IMG/VR virus record: IMGVR_UViG_3300025316_001101
Source of the DNA: a virus
Lineage: Duplodnaviria > Caudoviricetes
Strand: one strand, 5' to 3'
Length of the DNA: 64,000 nt
Shown here: positions 6,531 through 55,675 of the stretch, one piece after another
Layout: every line of letters begins with the position of its first letter
How positions within the stretch are numbered: the first letter of the stretch is position 1
The notes under the pieces: model-generated
Database searches by the model: none
What the model saw: the letters and a program-made list of their open reading frames with translations, nothing else
What the model was told of the DNA's origin: nothing
Translations under genes and position numbers: made by a program

Positions 6531-6533
6531 AAG

Positions 6534-6685
6534 TCAGCGGTGAAGGACTCGAACCCCCGACCTCCGTGTAGTAGGCTCTGATACCCGGTGTAACTCGCTC
6601 CTGCTGCATTTGCAACCACAGCAATCGCTCGTAAGAATTCGTATCTTCGCCATCACGGTGCTCCAACCAACTGAGCTAACCGCCG
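6534..6685 (-). ncRNA. tRNA-like RNA with an 85-nt structured insert in place of the anticodon loop
   Basis: acceptor CGGCGGT/ACCGCTG, D-arm GCTC-AGTTGGTTG-GAGC, stem CCGTG/CACGG enclosing 6569-6653, T-loop TTCGAGT. Confidence 0.8.
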
Positions 6686-8131: not shown

Positions 8132-8345
8132 CTCATTAATCTACGTAAATCCGCTCATGTGCATTTTTCCTTTTTCGATAATCATTTTTGTTTTTGTAGA
8201 CCTGTTCAGTATTCGGGCATATAGCCTGACAAGGGTTGACAAGTCGTTCTTTGGGAGTAACTACAAGTTGCTCAGGTGGATAATCCACACTCCAAAGCCG
8301 GTGTCTTTCGACATCATACGTATTATACGCTCGTCAGCCCAAAAG

Positions 8346-11005: not shown

Positions 11006-11227
11006 TACCGCACCGTGTCATGGTCAATCCACTTTTTATCGATCCACAATTTTCTTTCTTTGTATGGCTGTTGAACAAGCACATGAACTTCATTTTCATT
11101 AAAGTCTAAAATTTCACAATCAATAGATTGTTTGCTACGACGATGAGCACCCGTAAATGCAGTTGCATTAATTTTAACTGTCTTGCCTTTTTCTAAATCC
11201 ATAAATTCTCCAAAAGTAAACACATAG

Positions 11228-11301
11228 CCCGTTTGGTGGGACTCGAACCCACGACATGCGACTTTAGAGATCGCCGCTCTAACCAACTGAGCTACAAACG
11301 G
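11228..11301 (-). tRNA. amber suppressor tRNA (anticodon CTA)
   Basis: canonical cloverleaf CCGTTTG/CAAACGG, GCGAT-CT CTA AA-GTCGC, T-loop TTCGAGT, G73. Confidence 0.9.
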
Positions 11302-11659: not shown

Positions 11660-11778
11660 TGGCCAAGACAGGAATCGAACCTGTATACTCTAAGTTTGTC
11701 GCAATGGCTTACTATGAACAAAGCTCACGCTTTGGACCCCCAACTCCACCTAAAGTTTTACCATTAATATACTCGGCC
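11660..11778 (-). ncRNA. tRNA-like RNA with a ~54-nt insert in the anticodon loop
   Basis: acceptor GGCCGAG/CTTGGCC, T-arm ACAGG-TTCGATT-CCTGT, D-loop AATGGTA, stem TTAGG/CTTAG around the insert. Confidence 0.65.
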
Positions 11779-32495: not shown

Positions 32496-32499
32496 AAAG

Positions 32500-32584
32500 C
32501 TGTAGGGGTCAGAATCGAACTGACGTAGGCTTCCGCCACACGTGATTAACAGTCACGCCGAAGTACCAACACTTCATCCCTACA
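32500..32584 (-). tRNA. tRNA-Asn(GTT) with a long variable arm
   Basis: CGTGA-CT GTT AA-TCACG; extra arm GTGGC-GGAA-GCCTAC. Confidence 0.85.
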
Positions 32585-32823: not shown

Positions 32824-32839
32824 ATATAAATTTTTCAAG

Positions 32840-32912: not shown

Positions 32913-32921
32913 TCATTCAAG

Positions 32922-32994: not shown

Positions 32995-33009
32995 ATATAT
33001 TTTTTCAAG

Positions 33010-33136
33010 CTGCCGAGAGTCGATTCGAACGACTTCCTTTTGATTAACAGTCAATTGATGTAGTTCCAACTGCATGCGTTGCCGCCAAGGGTCGCTGAAA
33101 CTTTCATTTTTTATGCTACCATTACACCACTCGGCA
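33010..33136 (-). tRNA. tRNA-Asn(GTT) with a ~56-nt insert between D-arm and anticodon arm
   Basis: TGCCGAG/CTCGGCA; GTGT-AATGGTA-GCAT; TTGA-CT GTT AA-TCAA; AGTCG-TTCGAAT-CGACT. Confidence 0.75.
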
Positions 33137-55577: not shown

Positions 55578-55582
55578 ATAAG

Positions 55583-55675
55583 TGGTGGGGGCTGGGATCG
55601 AACCAGCGATCTTCAGGTTATTCTAGGGCTTGTCTGAGCCAAGAGCCTGACGAGATGCCTCTTCTCCACCCCACG
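55583..55675 (-). tRNA. initiator-type tRNA-fMet(CAT) with a 21-nt insert at anticodon position 34/35 (55622-55642)
   Basis: CGTGGGG start with C1:C72 mismatch; TCAGG-CTC[TTGGCTCAGACAAGCCCTAGA]ATAA-CCTGA. Confidence 0.8.

Follow-up and report, generated by a model that had tools for sequence, protein, structure and literature searches.

A tRNA-Asn(GUU) frame carrying an additional arm

The window, meaning the whole 64,000-nt stretch of DNA analyzed here, corresponds to the minus strand of a 259-kb IMG/VR virus record that represents a freshwater huge phage (CheckV completeness, ~50%). About 49 tRNA genes and a tmRNA with the tag ANTFAVAA are encoded in the record, which points to a huge phage of a bacterium. 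Within one of its tRNA arrays, a 127-nt gene was found that becomes a 71-nt tRNA-Asn(GUU) once 56 nt after the D arm are removed. The intact locus was skipped by ARAGORN and by the Rfam gathering scan, though 18 to 20 surrounding tRNAs were called, and the intact 127-nt sequence gave only a local 20-bit match to the Rfam tRNA model (RF00005). After in-silico deletion of the 56 nt, ARAGORN called a 71-nt tRNA-Asn(GUU). With introns allowed, the same program proposed a tRNA-Ser(GGA) for the 127-nt locus; this call was rejected as strained, with weak pairs and the Asn arm turned into a variable arm. The parts of the tRNA frame are as follows (window coordinates).

33010 to 33136, minus strand: whole gene, made up of a tRNA-Asn(GUU) frame and the inserted arm; CCA is not encoded
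33130 to 33136, minus strand: acceptor 5' strand UGCCGAG, forming 7 bp with CUCGGCA at 33011 to 33017
33113 to 33127, minus strand: D arm GUGU-AAUGGUA-GCAU
33108 to 33112, minus strand: AAAAA linker from the D stem to the inserted arm
33039 to 33055, minus strand: anticodon arm AUUGA-CUGUUAA-UCAAA, with the anticodon GUU at 33046 to 33048
33018 to 33034, minus strand: T arm AGUCG-UUCGAAU-CGACU
33010, minus strand: discriminator G (G73)
32995 to 33009, minus strand: 3' spacer CUUGAAAAAAUAUAU, of a type common to the next two tRNA genes

The acceptor 5' strand is joined to the D arm by UG, and the variable loop consists of 4 nt (AGGA). The anticodon stem has an A.A pair at 27-43, and its loop carries U33, GUU, and A37. 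For AsnRS, the identity elements of Escherichia coli tRNA-Asn are G73 and the anticodon. The 7-nt anticodon loop, GUU, G73, and the cloverleaf are all present in the 127-nt gene, the cloverleaf only after the 56-nt deletion. The insert boundary is ambiguous in that one A can slide. These results bear out the sequence-only reading, which had described an intact tRNA-Asn frame with an insertion of ~56 nt at the junction of the D and anticodon arms, and we agree with its remark that an extra structured arm at this site is not a normal feature of bacterial tRNAs.

The gene is closely packed among its neighbors, with a small ORF ending 18 nt upstream and a tRNA-Gln(CUG) gene 15 nt downstream. A (C)UUGAA-A/U-rich spacer follows three consecutive tRNA genes (window 32995 to 33009, 32913 to 32921, and 32824 to 32839, all on the minus strand) and is possibly a shared processing signal.

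A Ro60 gene and an array of Y-RNA-like elements in the same genome

A 569-aa ORF at genome positions 127091 to 128800 (plus strand) encodes a Ro60 homologue, with Pfam matches to vWA_Ro60 (64 bits) and TROVE (28 bits). Full-length alignments to Ro60 structures, including Deinococcus radiodurans Rsr, Xenopus Ro60, and the Ro60 of Thermus phage phiLo, were obtained with E values down to 8e-16. On the same strand, 160 nt past the gene, begins an array of about nine Y-RNA-like elements that extends to genome position 130060. The array consists of plain stem-loops (E1, E2, E4, E7, and E8) and tRNA-framed capped elements (B, E3, and E5). The elements have in common a 5' strand, (N)GAAUGC-N4-6-UGG-NCUACAU (GAAUGC...UGGNCUACAU), and a 3' strand, ...CCCUUGUC. 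In the canonical order, a terminal helix is followed by an asymmetric internal loop with AUGCC(A) opposite (G)AACCCUUG, a helix of 6 to 9 bp, and CAU/AUG. Additional copies of the 5'-strand motif were present at genome positions 206823 and 217042.

Two array elements aligned to Rfam YrlA (25 bits) and YrlB (29 bits) below threshold and exactly over the common motifs. No phage element reached the threshold of the Rfam YrlA model (RF02553), whose gathering score is 69 bits compared with 25 to 29 bits for the canonical elements. RF02553 gave no match at the tRNA-Asn locus, as expected from its permuted strand order (see below).

The first array element, locus B (genome 128960 to 129089), lies 160 nt downstream of the Ro60 gene and has a tRNA frame (Rfam tRNA, 43.8 bits) in which a 61-nt capped module replaces the anticodon loop. 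B, E3, and E5 each consist of a capped module set on a tRNA-like frame that has acceptor, D, and T arms and lacks any anticodon loop. E3 and E5 also have additional GNRA-capped hairpins. A further capped module of the Y type (GACUUGUC-AACCCUUGU-hairpin-GAAUAC-...GGUCUACA) occurs at window 8195 to 8246 (minus strand), ~58 kb from the Ro60 gene and without a recognizable tRNA frame.

The inserted arm is homologous to the Y-RNA modules

The 56-nt insert of the tRNA-Asn gene, AAAAAAUGAAAGUUUCAGCGACCCUUGGCGGCAACGCAUGCAGUUGGAACUACAUC, begins with AAAAAAUGAAAG and ends with ACAUC, after which A26 follows. It folds into one long arm with the following parts.

33058 to 33107, minus strand: capped module of the Y-RNA type (RNA positions 30 to 79), with an AUG/CAU base, a 2x1 loop, a 9-bp helix, an internal loop, and a capped distal stem
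33094 to 33102, minus strand: 5' strand of the module helix, AGUUUCAGC, forming 9 bp with GUUGGAACU at 33062 to 33070; near-identical in locus B
33086 to 33093, minus strand: internal-loop strand GACCCUUG, counterpart of the ...AACCCUUGU 3' strand in the canonical Y RNAs of the phage
33076 to 33085, minus strand: distal stem GCG-GCAA-CGC with a GNRA cap, in place of the open 5'/3' terminal helix of the canonical Y RNAs
33071 to 33075, minus strand: internal-loop strand AUGCA, preceded by CGC; counterpart of the CGAAUGC Ro/Rsr motif region, here CGCAUGC

Read outward from the tRNA, the arm starts with an AUG/CAU base of 3 bp in the fold, continues through AGUUUCAGC/GUUGGAACU to GACCCUUG opposite AUGCA, and ends in GCG/CGC, a distal stem of only 3 bp closed by a GCAA tetraloop. 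The architecture of the insert is thus that of the canonical Y RNAs in permuted order. The small hairpins noted in the sequence-only reading are present, but merely as parts of this longer fold. The Ro/Rsr motif GNCGAAN0-1G, which belongs to the stem strand touched by Ro60, reads ACGCAUGCA in the insert, with one mismatch (CGCA for CGAA) compared with NNGAAUGC in canonical array members, and the mismatch falls at a position that is invariant across the canonical array.

When the insert was compared with its own genome by BLAST, one notable partner was found, locus B. The two inserts share GUUUCAGCG, CCUUG, AUGYA, and an identical 15-nt block, AGUUGGAACUACAUC; the hairpin between the common blocks differs, being GCG-GCAA-CGC in the Asn insert and UUGGG-CCUUAAAA-CCCAA in B. 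Their local alignment score of 46 was not reached in any of 2,000 shuffles (14 ± 2.5), and B was the best nonself match genome-wide.

A covariance model, R1, was trained on the modules of B, E3, and E5 and on that at window 8195, with the Asn insert excluded. MAFFT misaligned modules with unequal cap lengths, so the structure of R1 was restricted to the 8-bp helix. R1 matched the Asn module at window 33058 to 33102 with 29.5 bits (E = 1.4e-6) and the module of an orthologue with 26.4 bits. Across the 259-kb record, nothing spurious was returned; the matches were all four modules used for training, the Asn module (E = 2.2e-6), and two junctions between canonical Y RNAs (31.3 and 17 bits). The Asn module was the sole nontraining capped module detected genome-wide, and it has the traits of the capped family, namely, a helix of 8 to 9 bp, a ..CCCUUG../..AUGC.. 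loop, a capped distal stem, and a 3' CUACAU. Each junction match comprised the 3' strand of one canonical Y RNA and then the 5' strand of the next, which shows a capped module to be a canonical Y stem with its strands in a different order.

A sequence-only nhmmer profile of canonical Y stems permuted in silico was too insensitive, leaving the Asn insert unmatched at E ≤ 10 and giving locus B an E value of 1.4; a structure-aware model was therefore needed. A hand-written structural descriptor matched both the Asn insert and B, but it also gave ~0.75 matches per shuffled genome and was not taken as evidence. The exact pattern GTTTCAGCG...AGTTGGAAC had 52 matches in IMG/VR, all in coding-like sequence and at about the number expected by chance. 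A solitary CRISPR-like repeat (GTTTC...GGAAC ends) and a small self-cleaving ribozyme were dropped as candidates, given the Y-RNA array and the lack of an Rfam match.

The homology also bears on the view that the insert is an intervening sequence, which had been raised in the sequence-only reading. In that case, the 56 nt would be excised by a protein endonuclease and the halves religated into an ordinary 71-nt tRNA-Asn. Such a view agrees with the clean tRNA left by exact deletion and with an insert that is structured and conserved. A BHB motif places a 4-bp helix between two bulges of 3 nt each at the exon-intron junctions. No such motif was found there by folding or by inspection; the A-rich 5' end of the insert can pair with the first nucleotides of the 3' exon over no more than 2 bp. 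No group I intron or other ribozyme was matched in Rfam at E ≤ 10, and the insert measures only 56 nt, against a group I core of at least 200 nt with P3 to P9 (RF00028). EndA (PF01974), RtcB, and a class IIb aminoacyl-tRNA synthetase were not found in the 259-kb record, an absence that weighs little because the record is ~50% complete. In addition, the module is homologous to Y RNAs that are not introns, and the frames of B, E3, E5, and the related contig G004 (below) would yield no tRNA if the module were removed. Hence an intron, for which the homology, the junctions, and the Rfam and protein searches gave no support, is very unlikely.

Other unusual tRNA-like genes in the record

An 86-nt tRNA-Asn(GUU) at window 32499 to 32584 (minus strand) has a long variable arm, an uncommon trait in an Asn tRNA, and is better matched by the tRNA-Sec model (32 bits) than by the tRNA model; it is the counterpart of a 91-nt tRNA-Asn in G004. 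A 119-nt tRNA-like gene at window 11660 to 11778 (minus strand; Rfam tRNA, 32 bits) has 60 nt replacing 13 central positions of the anticodon arm. R1 did not match this gene, and its insert is therefore of a different kind. A 153-nt tRNA-like frame at window 6533 to 6685 (minus strand; genome 188340 to 188492) emerged when introns were permitted in ARAGORN and encloses an internal segment of 78 nt; of the three tRNAs next to it, two received odd calls for the anticodon loop ("ca"). A 94-nt tRNA at window 55582 to 55675 (minus strand) was assigned by ARAGORN a 4-nt anticodon (CUUG) or, alternatively, Lys(CUU) with a 21-nt insert in the anticodon loop. Two tRNAs with CUA anticodons (amber suppressors), one at window 11227 to 11301 (minus strand) and one outside the window at genome 210663 to 210736, hint at TAG reassignment or read-through in the phage.

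Both halves of the RNA are under selection

By way of a neighboring 65-aa ORF, the locus was traced in identical form to two other assemblies (L076 and L077) and as a variant of ~91% identity to four contigs from other metagenome samples (L072 to L075). When the variant was set against the 36-pair structure, 98.6% of cells were paired and six pairs had changed on both sides; slid controls had none. The changes on both sides comprised C4-G to G4-C in the acceptor, U-A to C-G in the Y helix, and four of the five T-stem pairs. In the D arm, a G.U pair became G-C. The anticodon stem gained a U and was a perfect 5 bp. The tetraloop changed from GCAA to GUAA, so the cap remained GNRA. Both internal-loop strands, the CUGUUAA loop, and G73 were unchanged. 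In addition, G18 of the D loop became A together with a change of the T loop from UUCGAAU to UGCAAAU (G18/U55 to A18/G55). These two positions are normally in contact at the tRNA elbow, and the coordinated change fits a conserved elbow.

The pair changes and the retained features indicate selection on both the tRNA frame and the module. The compensatory changes, together with the position in a tRNA array with the common (C)UUGAA spacer, argue that the gene is more than a chance arrangement. They also bear on whether a tRNA-Asn gene was simply disrupted by a duplicated Y module and is now dead. The identical blocks of 9 nt and 15 nt in common with locus B suggest recent copying within the genome, and the A.A at 27-43 would suit a decaying gene. 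Evidence against such decay comes from a diverged orthologue, with its compensatory changes in the acceptor, the T stem, and the module helix and its coordinated change of the D and T loops, and from the retention of tRNA-type spacers. We regard a dead gene as extremely improbable.

Ro60 proteins with 42 to 55% identity were found in eight IMG/VR contigs, where the gene is mostly followed by YrlA-type Y RNAs in the canonical order. In G004, the closest relative, a tRNA-framed module that resembles B and lacks an anticodon loop (L081, complement of 1463 to 1582) lies in a tRNA array, 7 nt ahead of the 91-nt tRNA-Asn with a long variable arm. This arrangement suggests that Y modules are recurrently associated with Asn tRNAs in this phage clade. 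Another tRNA-framed module was present in G005. In G003 (complete, 407 kb; L079, about 1490 to 1700), a Y-type 3' strand, GUCUUGACUCCCCUUGUUGG, is followed by a complete tRNA-Phe(GAA) and a Y-type 5' strand, GAAUGACCGUAAGGACUACAU, and a whole tRNA thus appears to cap the Y stem.

The chimera pattern CTACAT..CTGTTAA..GTTCRAWTC of the Asn gene had no match in IMG/VR, and a junction pattern searched across the metagenome collection returned only the already known variant contig. By these pattern searches of IMG/VR and the metagenome collection, no second lineage with the Asn-type layout was found. Megablast of the region against GenBank phages gave no match.

The conserved Asn features raise the possibility of a decoding tRNA-Asn that keeps its arm, with or without Ro60, as a means to mark the tRNA or to protect it from attack, such as that of an anticodon nuclease of the host (a "steric shield"). 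The complete cloverleaf with U33, GUU, A37, and the discriminator G is what such a tRNA would have, and the orthologue keeps both the loop and G73 and has a better-paired anticodon stem. The linkers (AAAAA before the arm, C and A26 after it, and a 4-nt variable loop) have lengths that fit an Asn arm at its normal position and a Y module branching off to the side. Moreover, all Asn genes seen in the 259-kb record are atypical. On the other hand, a 50-nt arm at the hinge of the D and anticodon arms would seem ill-suited to passage through the ribosome, all the more when it carries a 60-kDa ring, and the sister module genes B, E3, E5, and that of G004 have no anticodon loop. With two variants only, conservation of the 7-nt CUGUUAA loop is by itself not significant and carries little weight. 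We consider a decoding tRNA that retains the arm unlikely.

A probable tRNA-shaped partner of Ro60

From the homology and architecture of the module, the Ro60 gene, and the selection on both halves of the RNA, we infer that the arm is retained, that it binds Ro60, and that the tRNA half is put to use. The insert is probably a GNRA-capped copy of the Ro60-binding stem of the phage Y RNAs, set into a tRNA-Asn frame to give a YrlA-type Y RNA in tRNA order. Since the insert copies the docking stem of the Y RNAs and the phage encodes Ro60, a tRNA-shaped partner RNA of Ro60 appears the most likely product.

In this model, the gene would probably be cotranscribed with the neighboring tRNAs, and both ends of the transcript would probably be trimmed in the manner of a tRNA before CCA is added. 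The arm would probably be kept rather than spliced, giving a mature RNA of ~130 nt, and would dock the phage-encoded Ro60 ring, which would then cover that side of the tRNA. The tRNA-Asn body may provide the Ro60 particle with a nuclease-resistant L-shaped fold and may act as a handle for RNase P/Z, the CCA enzyme, and modification enzymes, and perhaps for AsnRS or a host enzyme that targets tRNA-Asn. The Asn identity could serve stability and tRNA-type processing only, charging, or a role as decoy or tether for a factor specific to tRNA-Asn.

Several points count against a Ro60-docking RNA. The motif is CGCAUGC, as opposed to the CGAAUGC/GNCGAA consensus, the capped stem has 3 bp, and the gene lies ~33 kb from the Ro60 gene, though on the same strand. 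In published cases, the Y RNA genes share the strand of the Ro60 gene and lie no more than ~4 kb from it. Every element scored below threshold with Rfam YrlA, and the sequence-only profile of permuted stems did not match the insert. A decoding tRNA would likewise be consistent with the intact loop around the Asn anticodon, with G73, and with the exact 71-nt tRNA obtained by deletion.

The imperfect Ro motif, which is also found in locus B, and the distance from the Ro60 gene could instead indicate that the arm docks another phage or host protein and that the module family is merely colocated with the Ro60 gene. Against this, the family begins 160 nt past that gene and on its strand, as do published Y RNAs, and it shares the AUGC/CUUGUC motifs with YrlA and YrlB. 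A partner other than Ro60 is therefore quite unlikely.

In a stronger form of the Ro60-docking reading, the RNA would be a true hybrid, charged with Asn, in keeping with its intact anticodon and G73, while carrying Ro60 on its arm, and would tether Ro60 (with PNPase) to AsnRS, EF-Tu, ribosomes, or a host nuclease directed at tRNA-Asn. We regard this form as doubtful.

Comparison with known systems

As reported previously, the tRNA-mimicking domain of YrlA Y RNAs is modified by TruB and DusA (PMC4201824). Neither a free CCA end nor an anticodon loop is present in YrlA as described in the literature. The phage gene resembles YrlA-type Y RNAs (RF02553; Chen et al. 2014, PMC4201824; Wang et al. 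2018, bioRxiv 10.1101/312249) in having a Ro60/Rsr-type stem with AUGC and CUUG(U) strands and the D and T arms of a tRNA, and in being encoded in a genome that also encodes Ro60. However, YrlA is circularly permuted relative to tRNA, with a closed acceptor and a Ro stem open at the 5' and 3' ends, whereas the phage gene has an open acceptor, a GNRA-capped stem of the Ro type, and a full Asn anticodon arm, and it lies in a tRNA operon 33 kb from Ro60.

In Mycobacterium smegmatis, YrlA is cut by RNase P in the "acceptor" loop, and CCA is added while the RNA is bound to Rsr (PMC4201824). The cleaved RNA is similar to the phage gene in that an Rsr-bound molecule has an open, CCA-bearing acceptor and a Ro stem at the site of the anticodon arm. 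It differs in being a two-piece RNA without an anticodon loop, whereas the phage gene specifies one chain that keeps the anticodon arm. Locus B directly encodes, in one chain, the topology that M. smegmatis YrlA reaches by cleavage, to which the Asn gene adds a full anticodon arm.

The Ro60 of Thermus phage phiLo binds phage-encoded Y-like RNAs and host PNPase (PMC12135203). Both phages have a Ro60 and Y-like RNAs with a CGAA-type bulge; binding to Ro60 and to host PNPase was shown experimentally for phiLo. Unlike the tRNA-Asn gene, Yrl1 and Yrl2 of phiLo are plain stem-bulge-stem RNAs that adjoin the Ro60 gene and are not tRNA chimeras.

Archaeal noncanonical tRNA introns (BHB, EndA) likewise interrupt tRNA genes outside the anticodon loop, near 25/26, and are of comparable length. 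They differ from the phage locus, which has neither BHB nor EndA, belongs to a phage with a bacterial host (tmRNA), and carries an insert homologous to Y-RNA stems. Class II tRNAs and allo-tRNAs also have a fifth arm, but theirs exits between 44 and 48, while the phage arm exits between 25 and 26, is ~50 nt long, and has an internal loop that resembles a protein site. In the searchable literature, we found no description of a Y RNA in tRNA order with an anticodon arm.

Significance for Ro60 systems in phages

On the practical side, these results warn that phage "tRNA genes with odd introns" can be protein-docking chimeras. The question of what purpose the tRNA-like half serves in bacterial Y RNAs has stood since 2014. 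The mimicry found here goes beyond a partial resemblance: the acceptor end is free, the anticodon arm is complete, the identity elements for Asn are in place, and the parts follow the normal order of a tRNA in a gene located within a tRNA operon. If the true hybrid existed, it would couple RNA surveillance directly and physically to translation and would represent a living intermediate in the origin of tRNA-like Y RNAs from tRNAs. As a complete mimic, the phage gene offers a natural test case for three problems: whether tRNA enzymes or the translation apparatus are engaged by Ro60 particles, what route led from tRNAs to YrlA-type RNAs, and why huge phages invest in Ro60 systems.
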